Virus record (IMG/VR): IMGVR_UViG_3300031758_009234
Location: 56,910 to 76,909 of that record
DNA: 20,000 bases
Source: an uncultured virus (IMG/VR IMGVR_UViG_3300031758_009234)
Taxonomy: Duplodnaviria; Heunggongvirae; Uroviricota; Caudoviricetes
Reading direction: 5' to 3' (one strand)
Positions within the stretch are counted from its first letter, which is position 1, and every line of letters starts with the position of its first letter. Below, one piece after another: positions 5,750 to 18,536 of the stretch. Below the pieces are notes generated by a model. That model had not been told where the DNA came from and did no database searches. It worked only from the letters and a program-made list of their open reading frames with translations. A program made the position numbers and the translations under genes.

Positions 5750-6244
5750 ATGAAATACATCAAAAGATTTAAAGTCAACGAAAATATGAGCGGTAAGAAA
5801 ATTGTTTACGTAGATATGGACGACACTCTTTGTGATTTTACAGGTCCTTTTAGAAGTGGTCAACAAAATACAGAGGCTTCAGAGGATGAACCAATTAGAA
5901 AGTGGCCTCAGTCAAAAGTTGGTTTTTTCTTAGGTTTACAACCACTACCAGGAGCAATCGAAGGAATGAATACCTTGATGTCTAAGTATGATGTTTGGAT
6001 TTTAACTAGACCATCTATTAAAAACATTCACTGTTATACCGAAAAAGCTGAATGGATTAAGAAATATTTTGGTGAAAAAATGTTAGAGAATATGATTATT
6101 TGTCCAAATAAATCCCTTGTTAAAGGAGACTACTTAATTGATGATGATACAAGACATGGTCAAGTTGAATTTGAAGGAGAACATATTCATTTTGGTAAGG
6201 AAAAATTTCCTAATTGGGATTCAGTTATAGAATACTTAATGTAA
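5750..6244 (+). CDS. 5'(3')-deoxyribonucleotidase (NT5C-type HAD) with a short N-terminal extension
   Basis: VYVDMDDTL (HAD motif I), PLPGAIE, EKAEW, KSLVKGDYLIDD, FPNW; leader MKYIKRFKVNEN precedes a second Met. Confidence 0.88.
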   Translation: MKYIKRFKVNENMSGKKIVYVDMDDTLCDFTGPFRSGQQNTEASEDEPIRKWPQSKVGFFLGLQPLPGAIEGMNTLMSKYDVWILTRPSIKNIHCYTEKAEWIKKYFGEKMLENMIICPNKSLVKGDYLIDDDTRHGQVEFEGEHIHFGKEKFPNWDSVIEYLM

Positions 6245-6456
6245 TGTTTATTTATTGTATAAATAATCGAGGTTTGGAGAAATATCTAACCATCAATAAA
6301 AAATATGAAAATATTGAAGATTTTGTAGAAATTGATGAAGATTTTAACTGGTATAGAATTATCAATGATAAAAACATATCAGGAACATATGATAAATCAA
6401 GATTTGTGACAGTTGATAAGTGGAGAGAAATTCAATTAAATAAATTATTAAAATAA
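6244..6456 (+). CDS. Small hypothetical protein (70 aa) with conserved C-terminal tail; paralog of 14335..14559
   Basis: Start moved to the ATG at 6244 (TAATG overlap with the upstream stop); YCINN..LTINKKYE..WREIQLNKLLK. Confidence 0.75.
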   Translation: MFIYCINNRGLEKYLTINKKYENIEDFVEIDEDFNWYRIINDKNISGTYDKSRFVTVDKWREIQLNKLLK

Positions 6457-6488
6457 AAAAACCCAACTTTTTCAAGTTGGGTTTTTTT
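6455..6488. terminator. Bidirectional rho-independent terminator
   Basis: A7-CCCAACTT-TTTC-AAGTTGGG-T7 between convergent genes. Confidence 0.9.
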
Positions 6489-6494
6489 CATTTA

Positions 6495-7829
6495 TTACCA
6501 TTCATCATCATCATCATCTCCATCGCCATAAGAATCATCTTCACCATATCCTTCCCACGTACCATCAGTATGTTGACAATATCTAATTCTATCTTCATTT
6601 AAACCTTCAATATCGCTATCGTTAGCAGCTTTATTATTTTCAACATCAATACAATACATAGTATCCATATAAGGATACATATCAAACTCAGCTCTATCTA
6701 AATCACAAACAATATCTGGTCTAGTAATCGTTCTTGATCCATTAGAAATATCTCTACCCCCGTATCCTTGATTTGTTTTATAAAAGAATCCTTCTTTTTC
6801 AGCGAATTGTTTGAATAATTCCGTATCACTTTCATAAGCTGTGTAAATTCTATCCATAAAATCTACTTTTTCACCATTGACAGTACAGTTTCTCCAAAGA
6901 ATTGCTCTACCTTTAATTTTATTAGATTGATAAACACCATCAACAACTTCACCTTCATCCGAATAAAGTATAACTAATTCAACATTTTCATTATCACAAT
7001 AAATTGCTAACTTTGTTCTACTAGCACTTTTCATACAAGAATTATTTAATGAACCACCACCACTTACATATCTCAAACCATTATACCAGTGATAAATTTG
7101 ATCACCTTTAACAATTGAGAATTGTCTTAAAGCATCTGCTGCAAAGTCAAATGTTGCTGTAAATTGTTCAACAAATTGAGATAACTCATGATCTGTAAAC
7201 TCTATTTTACCAGCAGTTAAAATAGCTCTCGCCATTCTACCAATTCTCAATGGGTTTCTAGCTGTTGTCCAAATACCATCTAATTCAGGTGCGAATAACT
7301 CTAATCCTTCTTTGTTAATAACAGATACTCTTGGATTTTCTTTATCAGAACCATCTCTGTTAGTTTCTTCAACTTTACAATAAACTTTACCTGAACTTTT
7401 TGAAGTTGTTTCGGTTACAATTTTCATAACTTCTCCAACACCAACAGACCATCTATCACCAGTACCACCCGGCCATGGCTCAGCTTTATTATATTCTAAT
7501 CTCCCGAAGATTGCATCATTTGAGTCACTATGAGTTAAACATTTATTACCTTGGATACATTTCCAAACTACTGGTCTAGCAGCTAATAATTGTTGAACTC
7601 TTCTGTCTGGTGTGAAAGAGAAAGTTTCTCTATCAGTCACATCAATATAGTTTTGTGTAATACCATCAACATCAACTTTATTTAATTTCAATAACTCTTG
7701 AGCAATTCTATTACGAGTCATTCTTTTTAACAAATTAACTAATTTAGGTGAAAAAATCAACACAGATTCGTTGATTAAATCAAAAACTTGTTTCTCTGTT
7801 AAGTATTCATTATATCTTAAAATACTCAT
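6495..7829 (-). CDS. Hypothetical phage protein, 444 aa, with SCM / GRAILW / MDRIY / YPYMDT motifs and an acidic tail
   Basis: Long ORF; the motif series resembles an uncharacterised family I recall from large phages; function not assignable. Confidence 0.8.
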   Translation of the reverse strand: MSILRYNEYLTEKQVFDLINESVLIFSPKLVNLLKRMTRNRIAQELLKLNKVDVDGITQNYIDVTDRETFSFTPDRRVQQLLAARPVVWKCIQGNKCLTHSDSNDAIFGRLEYNKAEPWPGGTGDRWSVGVGEVMKIVTETTSKSSGKVYCKVEETNRDGSDKENPRVSVINKEGLELFAPELDGIWTTARNPLRIGRMARAILTAGKIEFTDHELSQFVEQFTATFDFAADALRQFSIVKGDQIYHWYNGLRYVSGGGSLNNSCMKSASRTKLAIYCDNENVELVILYSDEGEVVDGVYQSNKIKGRAILWRNCTVNGEKVDFMDRIYTAYESDTELFKQFAEKEGFFYKTNQGYGGRDISNGSRTITRPDIVCDLDRAEFDMYPYMDTMYCIDVENNKAANDSDIEGLNEDRIRYCQHTDGTWEGYGEDDSYGDGDDDDDEW

Positions 7830-7851
7830 CCTTAAAAATTTCTTTTTTTTG

Positions 7852-7861
7852 TATATATTAA
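7852..7861 (-). promoter_or_regulatory. Putative phage late-type promoter TTAATATATA
   Basis: Exact 10-mer, 22 nt upstream of the ATG at 7829. Confidence 0.6.
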
Positions 7862-7895
7862 TTTTTTATCATGAAAAAATAAAAATATATACATT

Positions 7896-8135
7896 ATGAA
7901 AAGAAAAGTGGCTAAAATAATAGAAATATTGGGTATAGGTCTAACAGAAATTGTTATTGACTTAGATACTAGTTTAGGTACTTTTAATTCAATAGAGTGG
8001 TCTAAATCAGAGAATAAAGTTTGGCTTCATATGTTTCATGAAGATGATATACAAATATCATTTGATTTTGATGATCTAGACAAAATAGACAAATCTATGG
8101 TTTATACATTATTAGCTTCTATAGCTTATAATTAA
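7896..8135 (+). CDS. Hypothetical protein, 79 aa
   Basis: ATG ORF with the variant motif AAAATATATA 4 nt upstream; stop overlaps the stop of the convergent gene (TTAA). Confidence 0.7.
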   Translation: MKRKVAKIIEILGIGLTEIVIDLDTSLGTFNSIEWSKSENKVWLHMFHEDDIQISFDFDDLDKIDKSMVYTLLASIAYN

Positions 8136-8635
8136 ATTCCTCTATTACCTCTTTCTTTTTCTAAATAAGCTTTAACATCTTCCCAAGTTACTCCACCAGG
8201 ATTACTAGTTAATTTATCAGCATTACCTTTTGGTTTTTCTTCTTGTTTTTTTAGTTCGTTATTTTTAACTAACTCTTCATATTTCTCATCAATATCTTTA
8301 ATAATAGATCCTAAATAAGCGTCAATTCCTTTTTGGTTAAGAATACTCTTATCAAAATCAACTACAAACTCTTCGAAAGTATCACCATAATAAATACCCA
8401 TAACCGGTTCCATAATATAATGATCTGTGTAAAATCTTATATTTCCAATTCGACCTTGCGCGTAAATAGTTGTTTTATAATTACCATTATAAGATTGAGA
8501 AAATCGATCTTGATCATTAAAAACTCTTTGACCATTTTTTTCAACGGTTGGTACAAAACCTAAATTAACTTGAAAGTATTTAGATCTTTTTATCTCTTGT
8601 AAGATTGTAAAGTTTGTTACTATATTTATTTCCAT
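8132..8635 (-). CDS. Hypothetical protein, 167 aa
   Basis: ATG ORF with the variant motif TAAATAAATA 4 nt upstream. Confidence 0.8.
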   Translation of the reverse strand: MEINIVTNFTILQEIKRSKYFQVNLGFVPTVEKNGQRVFNDQDRFSQSYNGNYKTTIYAQGRIGNIRFYTDHYIMEPVMGIYYGDTFEEFVVDFDKSILNQKGIDAYLGSIIKDIDEKYEELVKNNELKKQEEKPKGNADKLTSNPGGVTWEDVKAYLEKERGNRGI

Positions 8636-8669
8636 GAATTATTTATTTAAAAATAAAATTTCCCTAAAC

Positions 8670-8695
8670 AAAAAAATCACCATTTAGGTGATTTT
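8670..8695 (-). terminator. Rho-independent terminator for 8698..9390
   Basis: On the - strand AAAATCACC-TAAAT-GGTGATTTT-TTT, immediately after the stop. Confidence 0.75.
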
Positions 8696-8697
8696 AT

Positions 8698-9390
8698 TTA
8701 TTCTGTTTCGTATTCTAATCCTTTATTTTCTCCATACTTATCATCAAAATCTGATTTTAAGAATTCTAAAAATTCAAGTAATGACATTTTTTCACTTTCT
8801 GGTGTTTCTTCTTGAGTAGGAGCTTCTTGTTGATTTTGACCTTGAGCAGGAGCTTGAGCGGCAGGCTTTTTATTTAGACTTAATTTAAACTCACCATCTT
8901 CCTTTTCTATATTAACATTATGTGTTGTTTGACCAATTAAATCAATTTCATCTACACCATATTTCTTAAACTTAACATACATTTTTGTTATATCATCACT
9001 TGAAAAATCAGCATTTGGATCTTTTGGTATACCATCTTTTATATTAATAGAAATATAAAGATTATAAACACCATCACCATCAGAGTATTTAACTGTTAAT
9101 GAATCGTCTGTTTGTGAATAAACTGATATTTCAGAACTATGTAGTTTAACTCCTTGTTCTGAAAGGCTAACAACACGTTTCTTACTTTTTTTATTTGAAT
9201 TTTCTTTAGCTTGATTAATTGATATATTCTCTTCTTCTGTTTCATCAACATTATCTTCATTAAATAAATCATCAACAGCTTTTTTTAACTCCATTAATTT
9301 ACCTTTGATGTAAGTTTCAGGTGTATCGTTTGCTTCATTAATTTTGTTTTCATTAACAAAATCAGAATATCTTAATATTTTACTTTTCAT
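8698..9390 (-). CDS. Hypothetical acidic protein, 230 aa; possible virion-internal protein
   Basis: Leader MKSKILRYSDFVNENKINE; low-complexity PAAQAPAQGQNQQEAPTQEE linker. Confidence 0.8.
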   Translation of the reverse strand: MKSKILRYSDFVNENKINEANDTPETYIKGKLMELKKAVDDLFNEDNVDETEEENISINQAKENSNKKSKKRVVSLSEQGVKLHSSEISVYSQTDDSLTVKYSDGDGVYNLYISINIKDGIPKDPNADFSSDDITKMYVKFKKYGVDEIDLIGQTTHNVNIEKEDGEFKLSLNKKPAAQAPAQGQNQQEAPTQEETPESEKMSLLEFLEFLKSDFDDKYGENKGLEYETE

Positions 9391-9394
9391 ACTT

Positions 9395-9404
9395 TATATA
9401 TTAA
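9395..9404 (-). promoter_or_regulatory. Putative phage late-type promoter TTAATATATA
   Basis: Exact 10-mer, 4 nt upstream of the ATG at 9390. Confidence 0.65.
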
Positions 9405-9519
9405 TTTTTTATTCCCAAAAATAGATAGAAAGACAATTAATTCAATATATATGGTATATACTAAACTTAGACTGTAAGTTATTGTATAATAAAAAAAGAC
9501 AAAAATAAATCTTAAATAT

Positions 9520-11439
9520 ATGAGTTTATTAAGCACGATAAAAAAAGACTTTACCCAAGGTGATAAAGATATTTCTTTACAGGAATTTTTAGAACTTTGT
9601 AAAAAGGATAAAGTTTATTCTTCACCAGCTGAGAGAATGTTACAAGCTATTGGTGAACCAGAAGTAGTTGATACTAAGCTAGATGAAAGACTTAGTAGAA
9701 TTTACTCTAACAAATTAATTAAAAGATATCCAGCATTCTCGGAATTCTTTGGAATGGAAGATACTATTGAACAAATTGTTTCTTTCTTTAGACACGCAGC
9801 TCAAGGATTAGAAGAAAAGAAACAAATTCTTTACCTTTTAGGACCAGTTGGTGGTGGTAAATCTTCTTTAGCAGAAAGATTAAAACAACTAATGGAAAAA
9901 AGTCATATTTATGTGCTTGTTGCTGACGGTGAAGTTTCACCGGTATTTGAGAACCCACTTGGATTATTTTCTTCTTATAGAGAAGAATTAGAAAAGGAAT
10001 ATGGTATTCCAAAAAGATATATTCCTTCTTGTGCTTCTCCATGGGCTACTAAAAGATTAGCTGAGTTTGATGGTGATGTAACTAAGTTCTCAGTTAGAAA
10101 ATTAAAAATGTCTATCGCATCTCAAGTAGGTATCGCTAAAACTGAACCAGGTGATGAAAACAACCAAGATATCTCAGCTTTAGTTGGTAAAGTAGATATC
10201 CGTAAATTGGCTGAGTTTCCACAAAATGATGCTGATGCTTATAACTACTCTGGTGCTCTTTGTAGAGCTAATCAAGGTATGATGGAATTCGTAGAGATGT
10301 TTAAAGCTCCTATCAAAGTTTTACACCCACTATTAACTGCTACTCAAGAAGGTAACTTTAATGGTACTGAAAACTTACCAGCTATTCCGTTCCAAGGGAT
10401 TATTTTAGCTCACTCAAATGAGTCTGAATGGGAAACATTCTCAAACGATAAAAAGAACGAAGCTTTCTTAGACCGTGTTTACATTGTAAGAGTTCCTTAT
10501 TGTTTAAGAGTTGATGAAGAAGTTGAAATCTATGAAAAACTTTTAAAACATTCTTCTTTATCTGAAGCACCTTGTGCACCACAAACTTTAGACTTGTTGG
10601 CTAAGTTTTGTGTTATGACAAGATTAAAACACCCTGAGAACTCAAATTTATACTCTAAAATGAGAGTTTATAATGGTGAATCTTTAAAAGAATCTGATCC
10701 TAAAGCAAAATCTTTACAAGAATATAAAGATGACGCGGGTATCACAGAAGGTATGAATGGTATTTCTACTCGTTTCGCTTTTAAAGTTCTTTCTAAAGTA
10801 TTTAATCACGACACTGAAGAAGTTGCTGCTAACCCAGTACACCTTTTCTATGTGTTAGAAAATGAAATTGTTAAATTACAATTACCAAAAGAAACTGAAG
10901 AATACTACTTAAATATCTTAAAGTCTAAAATCAGTACAAAATATGCTGAGTTTATTGGTGATGAAATTCAAAAAGCTTATGTAGATTCTTATCAAGAATA
11001 TGGACAAAACTTATTTGAAAGATATATCACTTATGCTGACCACTGGTGTCAAGATAATGACTTTAGAGATCCAGAAACAGGACAACAATTTGATAGAGCT
11101 GCTCTTAACGAAGAGTTAGAGAAAATTGAAAAACCAGCTGGTATCGCTAATCCAAAAGATTTCAGAAATGATGTTGTACAATTCTATTTAAGACATAGAG
11201 CTAAGAATGGTGAATCACCAACTTGGGATTCTTATGAGAAAATTAGAAGTGTGATTGAAAAGAGAATTTTTTCTAAAACTGAAGATATCATTCCAGTTAT
11301 TTCTTTCACTTCTAAAGCTTCTAAAGACGAAGAAAAGAAACATTCAGAATTCATCAATAGAATGAAGGATAGAGGATACACTAACAAACAGATTAAGTTA
11401 TTAACTGACTGGTATCTAAGAGTTAGAAAATCAAATTAA
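9520..11439 (+). CDS. prkA: PrkA/YeaG family AAA+ ATPase (annotated as serine protein kinase)
   Basis: Walker A GPVGGGKSS, KTEPGDENNQDISALVGKVDIRKL, VEMFKAPIKVLHPLLTATQEG, EAFLDR, GISTRFAFK; 639 aa. Confidence 0.96.
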   Translation: MSLLSTIKKDFTQGDKDISLQEFLELCKKDKVYSSPAERMLQAIGEPEVVDTKLDERLSRIYSNKLIKRYPAFSEFFGMEDTIEQIVSFFRHAAQGLEEKKQILYLLGPVGGGKSSLAERLKQLMEKSHIYVLVADGEVSPVFENPLGLFSSYREELEKEYGIPKRYIPSCASPWATKRLAEFDGDVTKFSVRKLKMSIASQVGIAKTEPGDENNQDISALVGKVDIRKLAEFPQNDADAYNYSGALCRANQGMMEFVEMFKAPIKVLHPLLTATQEGNFNGTENLPAIPFQGIILAHSNESEWETFSNDKKNEAFLDRVYIVRVPYCLRVDEEVEIYEKLLKHSSLSEAPCAPQTLDLLAKFCVMTRLKHPENSNLYSKMRVYNGESLKESDPKAKSLQEYKDDAGITEGMNGISTRFAFKVLSKVFNHDTEEVAANPVHLFYVLENEIVKLQLPKETEEYYLNILKSKISTKYAEFIGDEIQKAYVDSYQEYGQNLFERYITYADHWCQDNDFRDPETGQQFDRAALNEELEKIEKPAGIANPKDFRNDVVQFYLRHRAKNGESPTWDSYEKIRSVIEKRIFSKTEDIIPVISFTSKASKDEEKKHSEFINRMKDRGYTNKQIKLLTDWYLRVRKSN

Positions 11440-11440
11440 T

Positions 11441-11466
11441 AAAAAGGGAGTTTATCTCCCTTTTTT
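11441..11466 (+). terminator. Rho-independent terminator after prkA
   Basis: AAAAAGGGAG-TTTAT-CTCCCTTTTTT. Confidence 0.8.
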
Positions 11467-11484
11467 AAAATATAATAATATGAT

Positions 11485-11604
11485 ATGCCACTTCCTCATT
11501 ATGCTTATAACTATAATAGATATTTAGTTATGAATCGTAGAAGAAAAATTAAAAAAATTTATAAAGATGTCAATAAATATAGTAGATCGAAGAAAGAGTC
11601 CTAA
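11485..11604 (+). CDS. Possible small basic protein, 39 aa (not in the ORF track)
   Basis: MPLPHYAYNYNRYLVMNRRRKIKKIYKDVNKYSRSKKES*; overlaps the yeaH start by 38 nt; TATAAT at 11471-11476. Confidence 0.35.
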   Translation: MPLPHYAYNYNRYLVMNRRRKIKKIYKDVNKYSRSKKES

Positions 11605-12832
11605 GGGAAAATCTTCGGAAAATAGACAAAGATTATTAAAAAGAATTGAAGGTCAAATTAAAAAGGCTCTTCCTGACATCGTTAAGAATACCAATGTTAA
11701 AGATTTGACATCTTCAAAAGAAAGAGTTAATATCCCAGTCAAAGGCATTAATGAACCACAATTCACTTATGATAAAGATACTGGTGATAAAAAACATGTA
11801 CATCCTGGTAACAAAGAATATTCAGAAGGTGATTTAATAAAAAAACCAAAAAGTGGTCAAGGTAAAGGTAGTGGTCAAGGTAAAGGATCAAATGATCCAA
11901 ATGCTACAGAAGATGACTTTACTGTATCAATAAGTCGAGAAGAATTCTTAGATTACTTTTTCAATGATCTAGAATTACCAGATATGGTTAAAAAACATTT
12001 AAACTCTATTGTTGATTTTAAACAAAAAAGAGCTGGTTATTCTAACTATGGTAATCCAAGTAGATTAAATATAACTCGTTCATATAAAAACTCAATGGCT
12101 CGTAGGATGGCTGTTGGTATGTTTTTCGATAAAAAGATTAAAGAAATTGAAGAAAAATTAAAGTCTGATTTATTAGATGATGAGAGAAATGAATTACTTA
12201 AAGAATTAGATAAGCTAAAAAAGATGAAGTTATCAGTTTCTTTTATGGAGGAAGTTGATTTACAATATAATAACTTTGAGAAAGTTGCTATACCAGTTAC
12301 TTCAGCTGTTATGTTTTGTGTAATGGACGTTTCTGGTTCAATGGGTGAGAAAGAGAAAGATATAGCTAAAAGATTTTTTATGTTATTATATATGTTTCTT
12401 ACAAAACAATATGAGAAAATTGAGATTGTCTTTATAAGACACCATACTTCAGCAAAAGAAGTTACTGAGGATGAATTCTTTAACTCTAAAGAAAGTGGTG
12501 GTACCGTTGTGGTAACTGCTTTAGAATTGATGGCAAAAATCATTAGAGAAAGATATAATGAAAACTGGAACATATACGCCGCTCAAGCCTCTGATGGTGA
12601 TGTTTGGGATAAGGCAGATGCTAGTGATTGTTATAAAATATTAGACGTTGATATATTAAACAAAGTTCAGTATATGACATATATCGAAATATGTAGAAGT
12701 GTAGATGGTGATCTTTGGAACAACTATAAGGTTTTATCTGATAAAAGAAAGAACTTTGAGATAGGTAAGATTAATGAAGTAAGTGAAATTTGGAAAGTAT
12801 TCCAAGATTTCTTTAAAAAGAAAACAGCATGA
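11567..12832 (+). CDS. yeaH: YeaH/YhbH (DUF444) vWA-domain protein
   Basis: IVDRR..KGKSSENRQR, VHPGNKEY, AVMFCVMDVSGSM (MIDAS DxSxS), FIRHHT, ESGGT, WNIYAAQASDGD; lies directly after prkA. Confidence 0.94.
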   Translation: MSINIVDRRKSPKGKSSENRQRLLKRIEGQIKKALPDIVKNTNVKDLTSSKERVNIPVKGINEPQFTYDKDTGDKKHVHPGNKEYSEGDLIKKPKSGQGKGSGQGKGSNDPNATEDDFTVSISREEFLDYFFNDLELPDMVKKHLNSIVDFKQKRAGYSNYGNPSRLNITRSYKNSMARRMAVGMFFDKKIKEIEEKLKSDLLDDERNELLKELDKLKKMKLSVSFMEEVDLQYNNFEKVAIPVTSAVMFCVMDVSGSMGEKEKDIAKRFFMLLYMFLTKQYEKIEIVFIRHHTSAKEVTEDEFFNSKESGGTVVVTALELMAKIIRERYNENWNIYAAQASDGDVWDKADASDCYKILDVDILNKVQYMTYIEICRSVDGDLWNNYKVLSDKRKNFEIGKINEVSEIWKVFQDFFKKKTA

Positions 12833-14322
12833 TGACTAAAGAAGAATTAAAAAAATTATTTTCAAAACCTGATTGGACTGATGAAACTATTATAGAAGCT
12901 GATAAAGTTGTTAGTAGAATCGCTAGTGAATATTTAGGTATTGAAACATATCCAAATCAATTTGAAATAATAACATCTGAACAAATGTTGGATGCTTATT
13001 CATTAATTGGTTTACCAATTTCTTATAATCACTGGAAATTTGGTAAAGACTTTGTTATTAACTCAAATCAATATAAGAAAGGTAGAATGGGATTGGCTTA
13101 TGAGTTAGTTATTAATTCAAATCCTTGTATATCTTACAATATGGAAGATAACACAACTTGTCTTATGATCTTAGTATTAGCTCACGCCGCATACGGTCAT
13201 AACACATTCTTTAAAAATAATTATCTTTTCAAACAATGGACTCAGGCAGATTCAATCATTGATTATATGGTCTTTGCTAAAGAGTTTGTTGCTAAATGCG
13301 AAGAGAAATACGGATTTGAAGAGGTAGAAATGGTTTTAGATGCTTGCCACGCCTTAATGAACTATGGTGTTGATAAATATAAAAAACCTAGAAAATTAAG
13401 TCCAACTGAAGAAGGAGAAAGACTTAAAAAGAAATTAGAAGATGATAGAATTCTTTTAAATGATTTATGGAGAACTATTCCTAAAGATGAGAAAGAAAAA
13501 CTTAAAGAAAAAAGATTTCCTGAATCACCGGAAGAAAATATTCTTTACTTCATTGAGAAAAACTCTCCTAAGTTGAGAGGGTGGCAAAGAGAAATTGTTA
13601 GAATTGTTAGAAAAACTGCTCAATACTTTTACCCACAAGGTCAAACAAAAGTTATTAATGAAGGATGTGCTACTTTTACACACTATGAAATTATTAATAA
13701 AATGTTCGATGAAGGTTATTTATCAGACGGTTTTATGCAAGAGTTTTATCATAATCATTCTAATGTTATTTTTCAACCAGGATTTGACTCTAAGTTTTAC
13801 TCTGGATTGAATCCATATACATTAGGGTTCAATATCTTTCAAGATTTAAAAAGAATGTCTTTAAACCCAACTAAAGAAGATTTGGAATGGTTTCCTAAGA
13901 TTGCTGGAAAAGGTAATTGGGCTGAAAACTTCAAATATATCGTTGAAAACTTTAAAGATGAAACATTTGTTTTACAATATCTTTCACCTAAGGTTATTAG
14001 AGATATGAAATTATTTGAAATTGATGATAAAATGGATAATAACTATTATGAAGTTAGTTCTATACATAATGAGAATGGTTATAAAAAAGTAAGAGAATCT
14101 TTATCACAATCTTATAATAGAAGTAGATACGTACCAGATATTCAAGTATATGATGTTGATATATTCGGAGATAGAACACTTACTTTAGAATATACACCTA
14201 TTAATAATAAAGGTCTAGATTATAATGATATTAAAAAAGTTTTACCTCACGTTGAATATCTATGGGGATTCCCAGTTAGAATGACTGAAAATGGTAAAGA
14301 ATTAGCAACTACAAAGAAATAA
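12829..14322 (+). CDS. spoVR: SpoVR/YcgB family protein
   Basis: YPNQFEIITSEQMLDAY, HWKFGK, GLAYELVINSNPCI, AHAAYGHNTFFKNN, QYFYPQGQTKVINEGCATF, NPYTLGF; ATGA overlap with yeaH. Confidence 0.95.
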   Translation: MMTKEELKKLFSKPDWTDETIIEADKVVSRIASEYLGIETYPNQFEIITSEQMLDAYSLIGLPISYNHWKFGKDFVINSNQYKKGRMGLAYELVINSNPCISYNMEDNTTCLMILVLAHAAYGHNTFFKNNYLFKQWTQADSIIDYMVFAKEFVAKCEEKYGFEEVEMVLDACHALMNYGVDKYKKPRKLSPTEEGERLKKKLEDDRILLNDLWRTIPKDEKEKLKEKRFPESPEENILYFIEKNSPKLRGWQREIVRIVRKTAQYFYPQGQTKVINEGCATFTHYEIINKMFDEGYLSDGFMQEFYHNHSNVIFQPGFDSKFYSGLNPYTLGFNIFQDLKRMSLNPTKEDLEWFPKIAGKGNWAENFKYIVENFKDETFVLQYLSPKVIRDMKLFEIDDKMDNNYYEVSSIHNENGYKKVRESLSQSYNRSRYVPDIQVYDVDIFGDRTLTLEYTPINNKGLDYNDIKKVLPHVEYLWGFPVRMTENGKELATTKK

Positions 14323-14326
14323 AAAG

Positions 14327-14352
14327 AAACCCACTCATTTGAGTGGGTTTTT
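14327..14352. terminator. Terminator hairpin after spoVR, overlapping the 3' end of the convergent gene
   Basis: AAACCCACTC-ATTT-GAGTGGGTTT-TT. Confidence 0.85.
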
Positions 14353-14559
14353 TAATATATCATCTAATTTTTCATCTCTTACTTTTGAAACAGATTTAAA
14401 ATCCGATAAATAAGCTTGAATTGTTTTATATCCTACTGATGTAGTCTTATCAGGTATTTTAACCCAAACACATTTAGGGTGTTCGTGTTCAAATATTTCA
14501 TAGGTTTTTCCTATTTCTATCTCACTTCTATTTGAAGTATTACTAATACAAATATACAT
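14335..14559 (-). CDS. Small hypothetical protein (74 aa) with conserved C-terminal tail; paralog of 6244..6456
   Basis: YICISN..IEIGKTYE..VRDEKLDDILK; TATATTTG element at 14585-14578. Confidence 0.75.
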   Translation of the reverse strand: MYICISNTSNRSEIEIGKTYEIFEHEHPKCVWVKIPDKTTSVGYKTIQAYLSDFKSVSKVRDEKLDDILKNPLK

Positions 14560-14597
14560 ATCACCAATTTATAAAAACAAATATAATAAAAATTATG

Positions 14598-15269
14598 TTA
14601 TTTAACTTTTATTTTATATGCTTTTTCAACTTTAGCTCCTCTTAAATCATATTTAGATAAATCAACATTTTCAATTTTACCTAAAGTTTTTAATTTACCT
14701 ATTTTATTTTCAATTGGTTTTAAAGAACAAAAAGCAATAGTTCCACCTACTTCAGATACTTTTGACTCCATTCTAGATGAAGCATTTACAGCATTTCCGA
14801 AAAAGTCTCTTAACTCAACCTTTTGAATACTATATGTTTTTTCATCCATATGACCTTCACAAATACCAACTCTTAAACTATAAGCTTTTTCATTAAGTAT
14901 AAGTTCTTTTGAGAATTTAATAGCATTGAATAATGAGTTCTCATTTGGTTCAAAATAAACCATGAAAGCATCACCAATTGTTTTAACAATCCATCCATTA
15001 TTTTTAGAAGCTAAACTATCCACTAATTTATGATGAGCTTCTAATTGACCAATCATAGTAACTGGATCATCAGACCACATTTTTGATGAACCTACAACAT
15101 CAGTAAAAACCATTGTTGGAACTGGTCCCGATTTTTTCTGTAATTCTGGACTTTCTTTATATTCTTTTTGAGCTTGTGTTAAAACTCTTTCGGATCTTAC
15201 ATTTGATTTATTATCAGTTGGTTCTTGCTCATCAGCTTCAAATAAACGAAAATTATTGATGTGTTTCAT
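14598..15269 (-). CDS. Class III nucleotidyl cyclase, predicted adenylate cyclase, catalytic domain only
   Basis: VFTDVVGSS (metal Asp), VKTIGDAFM (Lys and metal Asp), LRVGI, DFFGNAVNASSRMES (Asp; catalytic Asn/Arg). Confidence 0.92.
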   Translation of the reverse strand: MKHINNFRLFEADEQEPTDNKSNVRSERVLTQAQKEYKESPELQKKSGPVPTMVFTDVVGSSKMWSDDPVTMIGQLEAHHKLVDSLASKNNGWIVKTIGDAFMVYFEPNENSLFNAIKFSKELILNEKAYSLRVGICEGHMDEKTYSIQKVELRDFFGNAVNASSRMESKVSEVGGTIAFCSLKPIENKIGKLKTLGKIENVDLSKYDLRGAKVEKAYKIKVK

Positions 15270-15588
15270 TTGTTAGTTTATTTTTTATAAGAGCACACTT
15301 TTCATACTCTTCTTTTTCTTCTAATTCAGGAAGTAATTTTTTCAATTCATATACATCATTTAGTTCTAAACAAACCCAGAACTTTATATCAGATAAATCA
15401 CTATAATCTTCGATATAATGATCGATTATATCATTTACTTCATTACTATGTTCAGCTTTCATAAAGATATCTTCCCACTTATCTATACAGTTTCTTTTTA
15501 GATAATCTAATATCTCATCAACTATAACTTCAATATGTAATTCTTTTTCTGTTGAAAAATTCTCATTAAATCTTTTTAAGTATTTCAT
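15253..15588 (-). CDS. Hypothetical protein, 111 aa, with a C-terminal UVR-like coiled-coil motif
   Basis: Leader MKYLKRFNE; EEKEEYEKCALIKNKL resembles the UvrB/UvrC (UVR) motif; 17-nt overlap with the cyclase gene. Confidence 0.75.
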   Translation of the reverse strand: MKYLKRFNENFSTEKELHIEVIVDEILDYLKRNCIDKWEDIFMKAEHSNEVNDIIDHYIEDYSDLSDIKFWVCLELNDVYELKKLLPELEEKEEYEKCALIKNKLTNETHQ

Positions 15589-15608
15589 AATATAAAAAAA
15601 AATAGTTT

Positions 15609-15626
15609 TATATATATATATATTAA
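15609..15626 (-). promoter_or_regulatory. TTAATATATA motif extended into a (TA)7 tract
   Basis: TATATATATATATAT at 15609-15623; motif at 15626-15617, upstream of the ATG at 15588. Confidence 0.55.
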
Positions 15627-15633
15627 ATCAACA

Positions 15634-16428
15634 TTATTGATTTTTCTGCCAATAGTTTTTACCAGGCATTTCTAATTTATTTTTTTTAATACACCAAGTT
15701 ACTTGCCTTGCTGTCACATTTAGTTCCTTAGCTATTTTTGGGACTGACATTTTCCAGATTAGTGGTTTTATTAGTTCTAATAATTCACTATCATCTTTGA
15801 AATAACCATCTTTTCTTTTCTCTTTTGTTTTAAGAAAAACATTTTTGTAAAAATCCTCCAAATCAGACTTCAAATATTCTTCTCTCTTCTCATCAAAGTT
15901 TATAAAACAATATTTACCAAGTAAATATAGAGAAACTTTATCATACATCTCAGCTGCTTCAATTTCACTATTTGTGAATTTAACTTTTGATATTTGATTA
16001 TTATCAAATCTACACATCCAAGATTTTTTACTTTCCTTCCAATAAACACCTTTATACTTTGATGATTTTTTATTATTTGGTTTATAACTAGTTCCTAATC
16101 TAAAGGTAGATAGATGTTTTTTCAACTCATCATCAACAAATTTATTATCACCACAACCTCTTATATTATAACCATTTGGTCTGTATGTATTATACTTTTC
16201 TGCATATTTAACTTCTAATTTGTTTAACTCATCAATATCTTTAACATTATCTTCTAATATTTCAAAATCAAAATTTTCTAACCCGTATTTATCAACCGAG
16301 TTTTTAAGAATTATGTTGTGTGTATATTTTAACCAATCACCACCTTTGTATCTTTTATTGAAACTATGAACAGATTGTCCTATATAAGATTTGCAATTTA
16401 TTTTATTAAAAATTCTATATATTATCAT
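15634..16428 (-). CDS. Free-standing GIY-YIG homing endonuclease with AP2-like and HTH-like DNA-binding modules
   Basis: IIYRIFNKINCKSYIGQS (GIY-YIG), catalytic-type R and E, GYNI; SSKYKGVYW..W..EIEAAEMYD (AP2-like); SVPKIAKELNVT (HTH-like). Confidence 0.88.
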   Translation of the reverse strand: MIIYRIFNKINCKSYIGQSVHSFNKRYKGGDWLKYTHNIILKNSVDKYGLENFDFEILEDNVKDIDELNKLEVKYAEKYNTYRPNGYNIRGCGDNKFVDDELKKHLSTFRLGTSYKPNNKKSSKYKGVYWKESKKSWMCRFDNNQISKVKFTNSEIEAAEMYDKVSLYLLGKYCFINFDEKREEYLKSDLEDFYKNVFLKTKEKRKDGYFKDDSELLELIKPLIWKMSVPKIAKELNVTARQVTWCIKKNKLEMPGKNYWQKNQ

Positions 16429-16432
16429 AATA

Positions 16433-16442
16433 TATATATTAA
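16433..16442 (-). promoter_or_regulatory. Putative phage late-type promoter TTAATATATA
   Basis: Exact 10-mer, 4 nt upstream of the ATG at 16428. Confidence 0.6.
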
Positions 16443-16449
16443 AAAAGCT

Positions 16450-16457
16450 TATTTTTG
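16450..16457 (+). promoter_or_regulatory. Bacteroidota-type -7 promoter element (TAnnTTTG)
   Basis: TATTTTTG, 14 nt upstream of the uvsE ATG at 16472. Confidence 0.55.
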
Positions 16458-16471
16458 TAAAAAATATCTAT

Positions 16472-17398
16472 ATGAATCGAGTAGGTTATTGTTGTATAAA
16501 CATTTCTATAAATAATGGTAAGAAGAAAAAAGACTTCATAACCGTAAATAGAGGAATGACTAAGAAAACCTTTGAAACAAAAGGTTTAGAATATGTCACT
16601 GAGTTAGCACTCTTGAATATAGATGATATGTTCAAGATTATAAAATGGAATAAGGAAAATGATATATTAGTTTACAGAATGTCTAGTGATATTCTACCTT
16701 GTATCGGATTCTATAAAATAGAAAATCTACCAAAATTTGATATAATATCAAAAAAGTTAAAAGAAATTGGTGACTATGCTAAAAGTGTAGATATGAGATT
16801 ATCATTCCATCCAACCCACTTTTGTATACCTGCTAGTGAAAATCCAGTTGTAGTTAAAAACGCAATTGATGAATTAGATAAACATGCTCAAATTATGGAT
16901 TTAATGGGTTTAGATCAAACTCACTATTATCCAATTAATATACACGTAAACACAACAAAACCAACCAGAGAAGAGGCAGCTGAAAGATTTTGTACTCAAT
17001 TTTATAATTTAAGCGAGTCTTGTAGAAAGAGATTAGTTGTTGAGAATGATGATGGACCTAACCAATACTCAACCAAAATGTTATATGATCTAATATATAC
17101 TAAAATTGGTATTCCAATAACTCATGACTTTCACCATCATAATTACGGACCACAAGATATTTCTCAAGAAGAGGCGATAAAACTTGCTTGTTCCACATGG
17201 GGTGATGTAAAACCAATGACTCACATTAGTTCACCTAAAATATTAGAAGATGCAGCAGGCAGAGAAACAGCACACGCTGACTATATTTATGAAGAGATTC
17301 AAACGTTTGGTCTTGAATTTGATACAGAGATTGAAGCAAAAGCCAAAGATTTGGCGGTTATCAAGTATAGAAGTCAGTTTCAAGTACTCAAAGGCTAA
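16472..17398 (+). CDS. uvsE: UV DNA damage endonuclease (UvsE/UVDE)
   Basis: RVGYCCIN, YRMSSD, RLSFHP, INIH, LVVENDD, DFHHH, HADY, EAKAKDLA; start moved from the TTG at 16391 to the ATG at 16472. Confidence 0.93.
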   Translation: MNRVGYCCINISINNGKKKKDFITVNRGMTKKTFETKGLEYVTELALLNIDDMFKIIKWNKENDILVYRMSSDILPCIGFYKIENLPKFDIISKKLKEIGDYAKSVDMRLSFHPTHFCIPASENPVVVKNAIDELDKHAQIMDLMGLDQTHYYPINIHVNTTKPTREEAAERFCTQFYNLSESCRKRLVVENDDGPNQYSTKMLYDLIYTKIGIPITHDFHHHNYGPQDISQEEAIKLACSTWGDVKPMTHISSPKILEDAAGRETAHADYIYEEIQTFGLEFDTEIEAKAKDLAVIKYRSQFQVLKG

Positions 17399-17663
17399 GT
17401 TTAAAGTAGGTGATGAAGTTTTAATCAAAACACGTATAAATACCTTTGATGGGTTTTTTAAACATGGAATTATATTAGAAGTTGTTTTATCACCTAAACT
17501 ACGTGGTGATAGTCTTGACGAATGGTATTATAGAGTTGAATATGATCCACTTGAAGGTAGAAGTTCGGAAAATCATAAATACACTGATTACTTTAATGAA
17601 ACCGAATTAGATTACACATTACAAACGAAAAGAGATAATAAACTAAAGGAACTTGGATTATGA
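17289..17663 (+). CDS. Hypothetical protein, paralog of 18052..18339; start codon uncertain
   Basis: KFKVGDEV..YFNETELDY..KRDNKLKELGL aligns with 18052..18339; nearest in-frame ATG (17289) lies 110 nt inside uvsE. Confidence 0.6.
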   Translation: MKRFKRLVLNLIQRLKQKPKIWRLSSIEVSFKYSKAKFKVGDEVLIKTRINTFDGFFKHGIILEVVLSPKLRGDSLDEWYYRVEYDPLEGRSSENHKYTDYFNETELDYTLQTKRDNKLKELGL

Positions 17664-18055
17664 AAAATTATATACTCATAAAGTTACCTAATACTATTAA
17701 TTGGTATTCAAAAGGAAAGACTATAACAGATTTAATGTATAGCTCAAAACCTCTTATAACTAATCACACAATTGATAGTTTAATCAGATGTGGCTTACAA
17801 AAAAGTTACCAAGATGATTATAGAAAATATGAAGGTCCGTTCAGTGTTATAGTAGATACTCTTAGACTTGATGGTATAAGAATGGATTATTGGTATGACG
17901 ACCTAAAAGATAAAGGATTTGGAGTTATATCCAGAAATGAATTGGTTATAGATAAAAGGAAATTCGAATCAATTCCTAATATATTTAAAGATTGGTTAAA
18001 CCCCATTATTGTAATGGAGACAAGAGATAATAAACTAAGAGAATTGGGAATATGA
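17660..18055 (+). CDS. Hypothetical protein, 131 aa, with conserved C-terminal tail
   Basis: ATGA overlaps at both ends; ends TRDNKLRELGI. Confidence 0.8.
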   Translation: MKNYILIKLPNTINWYSKGKTITDLMYSSKPLITNHTIDSLIRCGLQKSYQDDYRKYEGPFSVIVDTLRLDGIRMDYWYDDLKDKGFGVISRNELVIDKRKFESIPNIFKDWLNPIIVMETRDNKLRELGI

Positions 18056-18339
18056 TTTGGACTATATGGATATTAATAAAATCACTCTTTAAAAAGAAGG
18101 AAATAAATAAATCTCCTAAGTTTAAAGTTGGTGATGAATTGAAAATTAATAGCGAATTCTATAAAAATAGAGAAGGTGTTGTTTTGGAAGTTTCTGAACA
18201 TTTTGTTGATATATGGATTTATCAAGTTGAAATTAAAATGGATGATGGTTATAATCATATTCAATACTTTAATGAAAACGAATTAGATTATCCATTATGG
18301 AAGAAAAGAGATGATAGATTAAAAGAGTTAGGAATATGA
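18052..18339 (+). CDS. Hypothetical protein, 95 aa (KOW/SH3-like start, conserved C-terminal tail)
   Basis: PKFKVGDEL..YFNENELDY..KRDDRLKELGI; short hydrophobic N-terminus. Confidence 0.8.
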   Translation: MIWTIWILIKSLFKKKEINKSPKFKVGDELKINSEFYKNREGVVLEVSEHFVDIWIYQVEIKMDDGYNHIQYFNENELDYPLWKKRDDRLKELGI

Positions 18340-18536
18340 AAGAAAATACGTTAAGAGAAAATATAAAACCTGGTTTAAGAGTTTTAATAGTTTTAAAGAA
18401 GGATCAGAAAAGTGGAATACTAACAGAAGGTATTGTTAAAGATTTACTAACTAAAGTGCCTAAGCATCACAGAGGTATAAAAGTTAGATTAGAAGATGGC
18501 CAAATAGGAAGAGTGCAAGAAATTTTAGATATATAA
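18336..18536 (+). CDS. ywbE: YwbE family protein (DUF2196)
   Basis: RENIKPGLRVLIVLKKDQKSGILTEGIVKDLLT..HHRGIKVRLEDGQIGRVQ. Confidence 0.9.
   Translation: MKENTLRENIKPGLRVLIVLKKDQKSGILTEGIVKDLLTKVPKHHRGIKVRLEDGQIGRVQEILDI

Follow-up and report, generated by a model that had tools for sequence, protein, structure and literature searches.

Short C-terminal peptides that dock otherwise unrelated proteins on one partner are a known kind of feature, and include clamp-binding tails, the XB peptides of adaptors, and cargo-loading peptides. In SspB with its XB peptide and in MecA-ClpC, a variable substrate-binding body bears at its C-terminus a short peptide by which it docks on an AAA+ unfoldase. 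F-box, SOCS box, and poxvirus ankyrin/PRANC proteins are large, fast-evolving sets of binding domains ending in one conserved docking module. The clamp-binding tails of T4/RB69 gp43, gp55, and gp33, like the bacterial QL[SD]LF peptide, bring unrelated proteins to one hub, and ssrA/C-motif 1, MuA-type C-motif 2, and the ChAD of TAC antitoxins are C-terminal signals that set the fate of a protein via a chaperone or protease. Here we describe a further C-terminal peptide, the tail, which closes five small proteins in a 20,000-nucleotide (nt) stretch of DNA (the window) forming the last 20 kb of a 76.9-kb contig (G000; 27.8% GC) of an uncultured virus (IMG/VR record IMGVR_UViG_3300031758_009234). 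The tail was shown to be C-terminal, to be carried by more than 100 sequence-unrelated bodies, to be selected as a peptide, and to have been added to pre-existing families. We consider it, with a probability of about 0.5, a helical docking handle for one shared reader. We infer this common partner from an Arg that never varies, from polar residues conserved across unrelated bodies, from the grafting of the tail onto older families, and from its mutual exclusivity with an N-terminal leader of the same phages. In the initial annotation, the tail had been interpreted as an amphipathic helical tag for a common partner; its helical, C-terminal, peptide-level, and leader-exclusive nature and its occurrence on many bodies have stood, while PrkA as the partner has not.

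The tail was searched for as the regular expression (regex) R-[DE]-x-[KR]-[LI]-x-x-[LI]-[GL]-x, and a loose version also allowed K at position 1. Among the 257 open reading frames (ORFs) of at least 40 amino acids (aa) in the whole contig, the loose regex gave 10 matches, 9 of them no more than 4 residues from the C-end (one in a low-complexity ORF that is probably non-coding) and 1 elsewhere. With a 3-residue cut-off, 8 matches were C-terminal versus 2 elsewhere in G000 (per-position rate ratio ~89; reversed proteins 2/5), 55 versus 6 in the related 172-kb contig G001 (reversed proteins 0/5), and 50 versus 6 in G003 (344 kb, 36.6% GC). A hidden Markov model (HMM) built from the regex matches and run on the gene sets of these three contigs placed 98/98 matches of at least 12 bits at the C-terminus, a count with some circularity, the HMM having learned from regex matches of the same genomes; in the lower bins, which are new sequences, 31/34 (9-12 bits), 14/18 (7-9 bits), and 13/20 (5-7 bits) matches were C-terminal. 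The initial annotation had proposed such a scan and a positional bias, and the regex and HMM counts on the three related gene sets confirm a strong C-terminal bias, with an excess well beyond chance. The tail was borne by 9/117 genes of G000, 76/327 of G001, and 71/495 of G003 (156 in total). Two weaker echoes that had been suggested in the window are not tails: neither the 11485 micro-ORF nor the nuclease N-terminus is C-terminal, and with the tail HMM they score 1.4 and -1.0 bits, respectively.

Position 1 of the tail was R in 156/156 cases and never K, though K was permitted by the regex, and position 8 was L/I in 156/156; L/I was found at position 5 in 155/156, D/E at position 2 in 148/156, and K/R at position 4 in 135/156. 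Position 9 was G in 97 and L in 47 of the 156 tails, position 10 was I in 80, K in 20, and L in 14, and the endings included LGI (56), IGI (22), LGL (10), and LLK (10). Upstream, position 0 was mostly hydrophobic (phi), F stood at -6 in 39/156, and T/S/D stood at -4 in 60/156. While 103/156 tails stop at position 10 and 8 at position 9, 45 continue for 1-5 residues, indicating that the tail does not need a free carboxylate at a set position. On a helical wheel, phi0, K4, L8, R1, and L5 lie on one face and the free positions x3 and x6 lie opposite, and L5-x-x-L8-G9-phi10 has what we take to be the form of a Schellman-type C-cap. We picture the tail as a portable C-terminal helix of ~10-13 residues, which would be self-capped at both ends, with the consensus phi-R-[DE]-x-[KR]-[LI]-x-x-[LI]-G-[ILV] and a minor form ending in -L-[KDE]; its conserved face (phi0, R1, K4, L5, L8) would plug a library of variable small domains into a common reader.

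This anatomy can be set against that of the described systems. The consensus does not match the clamp motifs QL[SD]LF / QLxLxL or SLDFLF, and clamp-binding tails are extended and occur on a few replication and transcription proteins, in contrast to a helical motif on dozens of mostly unannotated small proteins. The very C-terminal LAA- or RRKKAI-like end of ssrA/ClpX substrates is absent; unlike the C-terminal degrons, the tail tolerates 1-5 extra residues, is predicted to be helical, and has conserved charges, and no sequence likeness was found. It is also unrelated to the XB peptide LRVVK, and the long flexible linker of SspB was not seen, most tails directly following the last strand in the predicted structures. 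F-box-type modules are folded, comprise 40-50 residues, and belong to eukaryotic ubiquitin systems, whereas the phage tail is a helix of 10-13 residues. Full-text matches to the motif strings were all in unrelated papers, and searches with descriptive phrases and for huge-phage papers, supplements excluded, gave no description of this tag; the word "C-terminal" is absent from the main text of PMC7162821, and its sole occurrence in a 2025 huge-phage fold preprint is unrelated to this tag. In the literature searched, neither this motif nor the scale on which it is used has been described, and the same holds for its second role as a cassette junction (see below).

The bodies that precede the tail are diverse. 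With the tail removed, 50 IMG/VR ORFs gave 39 BLASTP clusters, and 51 G001 bearers, five with transmembrane-like segments, gave 42. Of the 156 bearers of the three contigs, 30 were placed in one expanded family (family C) with an HMM of the body only, and BLASTP sorted the remainder, 126 bearers, into 107 clusters. Matches of bodies to four unrelated Pfam domains (DUF1660 Zn-ribbon, HGTP_anticodon, DUF7448, and DUF6501) each stop before the tail. The tail is not confined to a single homologous family, in agreement with what the initial annotation had claimed.

The tail is also separable from its body. Family C, with the consensus MKxxCIxN..LTxGKxY..ND.G..Y..RF..EWRExKLxxLGI, includes the window genes at 6244 and 14335 and has 5,209 representatives at E <=0.001. 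Among its best 150 matches, 122 are short, 109 of these 122 with a tail-like end, and 28 are long proteins in which the body is repeated 2-16 times and the tail is absent. The closest Pfam entry to the family C body is DUF6501 / DUF7244: the multi-repeat relatives P0054, P0056, P0059, P0063, and P0109 passed the DUF6501 cut-off (23.8 bits), and the Pfam profile ends before the tail; one G001 member reached 23.3 bits, and the window family C proteins had no Pfam match at E 0.1. The metagenome proteins P0054-P0058 (704-1941 aa) have 6-16 tandem family C / DUF6501-like bodies without the tail helix. In the widespread family ..LLFETMVFGG..RYSTWEEAEAGH, the tail is present in the 15 closest of the 120 homologues listed and the other 105 stop without it; the tail has been grafted onto this older family. 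One orthologue pair is split exactly at the tail border, one member ending in YLAQF and the other continuing as YLAQIRDSRLTHLGI to its stop. The separability is thus seen in the family C repeats, in the LLFETM family, and in this pair.

In the window, all five tails were found at the positions given by the initial annotation, though the tail is far more common than reported there. Their setting is as follows.

17289..17663, plus strand: tail-bearing gene 1 (ORF1), family A, SH3-like body; start uncertain, ATG 17289 or 17250
17631..17660, plus strand: tail 1, RDNKLKELGL; its stop codon (17661-17663) overlaps the start ATG of gene 2 (ATGA)
17660..18055, plus strand: tail-bearing gene 2 (ORF2), family B, alpha/beta body of no known family
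18023..18052, plus strand: tail 2, RDNKLRELGI; stop overlaps the ATG of gene 3
18052..18339, plus strand: tail-bearing gene 3 (ORF3), family A; N-terminal hydrophobic helix, SH3-like barrel, C-terminal helix
18307..18336, plus strand: tail 3, RDDRLKELGI; stop overlaps the ATG of a DUF2196 gene (18336-18536)
6244..6456, plus strand: family C gene with a DUF6501-like body; tail WREIQLNKLLK, then stop, at 6424-6453
6455..6488, plus strand: intrinsic-terminator-like hairpin and T run directly 3' of the LLK-type tail; RNA fold -16.9 kcal/mol
14335..14559, minus strand: family C gene; tail RDEKLDDILK (VRDEKLDDILK) at 14350-14379, then NPLK and stop
14327..14350, minus strand: terminator-like hairpin whose 5' arm encodes NPLK, the 4 post-tail residues; -15.5 kcal/mol
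14578..14585, minus strand: TATATTTG box (TAnnTTTG), upstream of the gene at 14559; promoter type associated with tail genes

Genes 1-3 (ORFs 17250/17289-17663, 17660-18055, and 18052-18339), whose products end in TKRDNKLKELGL, ETRDNKLRELGI, and KKRDDRLKELGI, respectively, form a head-to-tail array in which the TGA stop of each overlaps the next ATG; the array lies downstream of uvdE inside a TTAATATATA unit. No in-frame ATG, GTG, or TTG was found for gene 1 3' of the uvdE stop (17396-17398), so that gene 1 starts at ATG 17289 or 17250 or is reached by a frameshift. Both candidate starts fall within the 3' end of uvdE, which is read in a different frame, with an overlap of at least 110 nt, and homologues of gene 1 are also called from within uvdE, from MKRFKR... 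The gene called as 6214/6244-6456 probably starts at ATG 6244, P0074 being the same 70-aa form. The initial annotation had counted at least three unrelated bodies among the five proteins, which holds only approximately: there are three body families in the window, not five, because the ORF1 and ORF3 products are paralogues (40% identity; family A) and the products of the genes at 6214 and 14335 are homologous to each other (32% identity, E 8e-4; family C). Two of these three families may both be small beta-barrels. None of the five bearers in the window had a Pfam or PHROGs match that reached the threshold, ORF3 and ORF2 had no tblastn match among 50,697 phage records, and an ESM Atlas search with ORF2 gave, at the level of a lead, unnamed viral clusters only (scores 0.85-0.86).

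The helical nature of the tail, proposed in the initial annotation, is consistent with structure prediction, since the tail was predicted as a helix in the models of both ORF3 and ORF2. The ORF3 model has a predicted local distance difference test score (pLDDT) of 83, with a helix at residues 82-92 and a pLDDT of ~85 in the tail helix; its fold matches are HspQ, KOW, and PWWP barrels, the best being a barrel-plus-helix protein. The ORF2 model is alpha/beta and poor (pLDDT 58; tail 40-47). It could be that the helix has no common reader, and that it is a structural element that caps, stabilises, or oligomerises each small domain, inherited within a few very fast-diverging families and now and then copied together with a cassette. 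That families C (30/156) and A are small barrels with a native helix speaks for this, as do the well-predicted ORF3 helix with its barrel-plus-helix matches and the recurrence of F at -6 and T/S/D at -4 in many bearers, which hints at a common last strand. The tail is also found, however, on Zn-ribbon, anticodon-binding, DUF7448, and membrane proteins; it has been added to a family in which 105 of the 120 listed members lack it, and the family C body folds repeatedly without it. The low confidence of the ORF2 tail points the same way, though that model is poor, and an Arg that never varies, together with polar residues kept at positions 2, 4, and 7 whatever the body, suits one partner better than a different intramolecular packing in each bearer. 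We regard a purely structural helix as rather unlikely.

The initial annotation had also inferred selection on the peptide from synonymous differences between the three DNA copies of the array. These differences are present, with L5 encoded by CTA/CTA/TTA, E7 by GAA/GAA/GAG, and L8 by CTT/TTG/TTA in tails 1 to 3, and selection on the peptide is mainly borne out: codon use at positions 1-8 is near background and not that of a DNA repeat. For R, D, K, E, and L8, the choice among synonymous codons stayed close to the genome background, the same-codon rate among the G001 tails was 0.63 versus 0.59 expected, and the motif is kept in CGN, CTG, and GAG codons in G003 (36.6% GC). In 16 tailed ORF2 orthologues, x3, x4, and x6 vary while R, D/E, L/I, L, and G are kept. 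At the same time, the coding DNA of the tail doubles as an overlapping stop/start junction and a recombination breakpoint, which was overlooked in the initial annotation. A last codon of the form xTA followed by TGA supplies the ATG of the next gene, and this ATGA overlap was seen in 29/76, 37/71, and 4/9 tail genes of G001, G003, and G000, respectively, versus 23/189, 36/266, and 9/68 other small genes. It was absent from 86/156 tails, including 47/97 of the G9 type, and both LLK-type tails of the window stand in front of terminator hairpins.

The loss of a cassette between tails was found in natural strains. One contig of run X18 joined 17629 to 18022 and one contig of run X7 joined 17647 to 18040; these two bridging contigs come from 2 studies. 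Exactly 392 nt are skipped between equivalent positions of tails 1 and 2 in each, so that the ORF2 cassette is wholly gone and a hybrid tail is left. Loose contig ends also accumulate at 18022/18023 and 18055, but with 80% likeness these may partly derive from other tail genes, and the conclusion is drawn from the two bridging contigs. In run X18, one contig goes back 35 nt at tail 3 (window 18341 to 18307), which may reflect duplication of the tail or a different tail gene at the same place. Tail-like motifs were also observed in the middle of two G003 ORFs (315824-316408 and 324603-325349, both minus strand), one of which is also tail-ended, and these internal copies look like read-through fusions of adjoining cassettes. 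Metatranscriptome run X20 contained a 170-nt piece ending at tail 2; as contigs only were available, it was not counted as evidence of transcription.

These observations bear on the view that the 33-nt unit is a cassette junction, serving as coupling stop/start and as a homology patch through which cassettes are gained, lost, and shuffled, with the peptide as a passenger. The excess of ATGA overlaps over other small genes, the xTA-TGA arrangement with its over-used ATA and GGA codons, the joining of ORF1 to ORF3 with the pile-up of loose ends, and the fusion-like internal copies would all be expected of such a unit. But the synonymous sites at positions 1-8 are almost free, amino acids are exchanged for similar ones (D/E, K/R, L/I), and the variable positions track helical periodicity rather than codon position. 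Moreover, 86/156 tails (47/97 G9-type tails among them) have no ATGA overlap, and operon-end tails before terminators retain the motif, which makes a passenger peptide very doubtful. Lambdoid boundary sequences and T4-type PeSL elements are likewise short conserved gene-border sequences with cassette exchange, but they are non-coding or promoter elements conserved as DNA, whereas the phage tail is coding and conserved as a peptide. The DNA of the tail supplies the overlapping stop/start (xTA-TGA) of adjacent cassettes, and in natural strains recombination between tail copies removes entire cassettes.

The tail is spread among large phages. A back-translated DNA pattern including the stop codon matched 55 loci on 43 IMG/VR contigs, many of them of 100-480 kb, and 50/50 distinct matches close an ORF of 53-212 aa. 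The same pattern in 185,579 prokaryote genomes (596 Gb) matched 3 spurious places, at none of which the motif is encoded. With a looser DNA pattern, strict tail copies numbered 46 in G003, 37 in G001, 16 in G002, 10 in G005, 6 in G007, 3 each in G004 and G006, 2 each in G009 and G010, and 1 in G008, and the reversed-pattern control gave 0 in every record; the completeness of G002, G007, and G003 is 97, 94, and 91%, respectively. The closest named genome is LR756502.1 (642 kb, "uncultured phage"), found by tblastn with the ClpC-like protein described below (72% identity), and it has 23 tail-pattern matches, one ending in TGG, clustered toward both ends. In PMC7162821, a 642-kb genome is listed among the four largest complete genomes of that study, all of the Mahaphage clade, and replication in Bacteroidetes is predicted for the five genomes >634 kb. 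G001 encodes a protein with a type IX secretion system (T9SS) sorting domain, which fits a Bacteroidota host, and the window phage was found in lake and freshwater metagenomes of 11 studies. We take the bearers to be a clade of huge Mahaphage-type phages of Bacteroidota with the tail on 8-23% of their genes.

Two promoter-like upstream motifs were recognised, in the window and in many intergenic regions of G001, TAnnTTTG 20-35 nt before small-gene arrays and TTAATATATA 10-25 nt before larger genes. We take TAnnTTTG to be the Bacteroidota -7 box. With promoter classes defined by motif matches only, and assignable for under half of the genes, TAnnTTTG versus TTAATATATA counts were 38 v 2 for tail genes and 73 v 72 for other genes in G001 (p 4e-8), and 20 v 4 and 77 v 97 in G003 (p 3e-4). 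We see the tail genes as mostly small members of dense arrays with translational coupling and promoters of the host type. The N-terminal leader MK[YH][LI][KR]xF[ND]E was found on 14, 16, and 29 proteins of G000, G001, and G003, respectively, mostly behind TTAATATATA, its window sites being 5750, 6495(-), 8698(-), 14598(-), and 15253(-). As the initial annotation had noted for the window, tail proteins are without this leader: the 59 leader and 156 tail proteins showed no true co-occurrence, the one regex match being false, and because the two never truly co-occur, these phages seemingly have two separate tagging systems. The window gene at 14598-15269(-) encodes a class III adenylate/guanylate cyclase domain protein with the N-terminal leader.

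Alternatively, the tail might mark small proteins for packaging into the capsid and co-injection, in the manner of encapsulin cargo-loading peptides or the T4 capsid-targeting sequence. It would resemble such signals in being short, C-terminal, and carried by unrelated proteins that look like cargo, and its ..L-G-I ending loosely resembles the ..LGIGSLK peptides of encapsulins. Genes for encapsulin cargo are linked to the shell or structural module. The tail genes lie in small-gene arrays, mainly behind the host-type motif TAnnTTTG and apparently away from large structural genes. Five G001 bearers look membrane-bound, and the N-terminal leader of the TTAATATATA class, which recalls the capsid-targeting sequence of T4, is a better candidate for such a role. 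We therefore consider packaging by the tail highly improbable.

As for the reader, the initial annotation had named the phage DnaK and the PrkA complex as speculative candidates. Neither G002 (97% complete, 16 strict tails) nor G003 (91%, 46 strict tails) has a PrkA gene; as PrkA is missing from 2/3 tail-bearing genomes of at least 90% completeness, it is not a general reader. The PrkA of the window is 89% identical in G007, and at 9520-14322 the window has a complete PrkA - DUF444 (YeaH) - SpoVR operon in a phage. DnaK is encoded in the window and in 3/3 tested relatives of at least 90% completeness, and G003 also encodes DnaJ; it is a candidate by its presence, but nothing else favours it. 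DnaK prefers extended, hydrophobic-basic peptides, while the tail is predicted to be a helix with conserved acidic residues, and the presence of DnaK does not track the number of tails. That the tail recruits DnaK or marks its dedicated clients, or that the PrkA complex reads it, is very unlikely in our judgement.

A ClpC-like double AAA+ gene was found in G000 (G000:C1:21440-23626, outside the window) and in 5/5 relatives of at least 90% completeness. Its product has a UVR-type M-domain, a VGF loop at the position of the ClpP-docking loop, and a conserved acidic N-terminal patch (..A[IL]EDDDDDD..), and the N-domain is absent. ClpP is present in G001-G004. We guess that the reader could belong to the phage proteostasis machinery, this N-domain-less ClpC-like unfoldase acting with or without ClpP, and that the tail might serve as an adaptor-docking or timed-clearance signal. 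The likeness to SspB and MecA-ClpC is that these phages also encode a ClpC-like protein, but SspB and MecA are one or a few adaptors per cell, compared with 9-76 bearers per contig here, where docking is our proposal. The XB peptide of SspB binds the N-domain of the unfoldase; the phage ClpC-like protein has no N-domain. A prediction of the complex of ClpC-like residues 1-440 with ORF3 residues 22-95 gave an uncontrolled score of 0.00, which speaks neither for nor against binding. A more specific version, that the phages practise targeted proteolysis with dozens of fast-evolving bait domains, each with its own host or phage target, and one shared helix for the ClpC-like protein and ClpP, seems quite unlikely to us as it stands. 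New baits would then be recruited by recombination into the tail-coding junction, and such a system would be the bacterial-virus counterpart of the F-box/PRANC receptor families. Another idea is that the tail LGI mimics the unfoldase IGF/VGF loop in the ClpP pocket; it is weakened by the -LLK/-LLD variants (59/156 tails lack G9) and by the absence of ClpP from G007.

Two further candidates were rejected. LGI as an IxI-like motif for small heat shock proteins was abandoned with an HSP20 gene in 0/8 records, and tail-less DUF6501 repeat proteins as a multivalent reader were encoded in none of G000, G001, and G003, whose only 3 "non-tail" family C body matches all have degenerate tails.

Several points weigh against docking on one shared reader. 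No binding partner was found for the tail here. Co-occurrence is uninformative, since the ClpC-like protein and DnaK are core genes of the clade and are also present in genomes with 3 strict tails, and ClpP is absent from the 94%-complete G007. Classic C-terminal degron readers are disfavoured by the 45/156 tails that run past position 10. In SH3-like bodies, the tail helix may pack on its own barrel, as in the ORF3 model (pLDDT ~85 for the tail helix), and 30/156 bearers are a single family with a native tail. The number of true folds is lower than the cluster counts, because BLASTP misses remote kinship, and the HMM and the position counts both derive from regex matches of the same genomes, which gives the strongest HMM bin the circularity mentioned above. 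At the DNA level, the same-codon rate in G003 was 0.52 versus 0.39 expected (with a background from long genes only), and CTA at L5 (20 vs 5.4 expected), GGA at G9 (30 vs 14.3), and ATA at I10 (34 vs 15.4) were over-used. The promoter association, already limited to genes with an assignable motif, was not significant in G000 (TAnnTTTG versus TTAATATATA, 2 v 4 for tail genes and 15 v 43 for others).

Huge phages have hundreds of small genes without known function, and up to a quarter of them here share one handle, so that one bait experiment with a tail peptide might be enough to identify the reader. Dozens of unknown proteins per genome, and hundreds of protein clusters in metagenomes, would then be seen to follow one logic. 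The tail is also a candidate portable tag, which may work in Bacteroidota. The way in which such a tag spreads is also visible here, its coding sequence being the in-register junction of coupled cassettes at which natural strains gain or lose cassettes exactly.

The translation and transcription factors encoded by these phages include IF3 and NusG in G001 and, in G003, a protein with an S1 domain and a factor of the sigma-70 family. Several DNA methylases, as well as inteins or LAGLIDADG genes, were also observed in G003 and G001.

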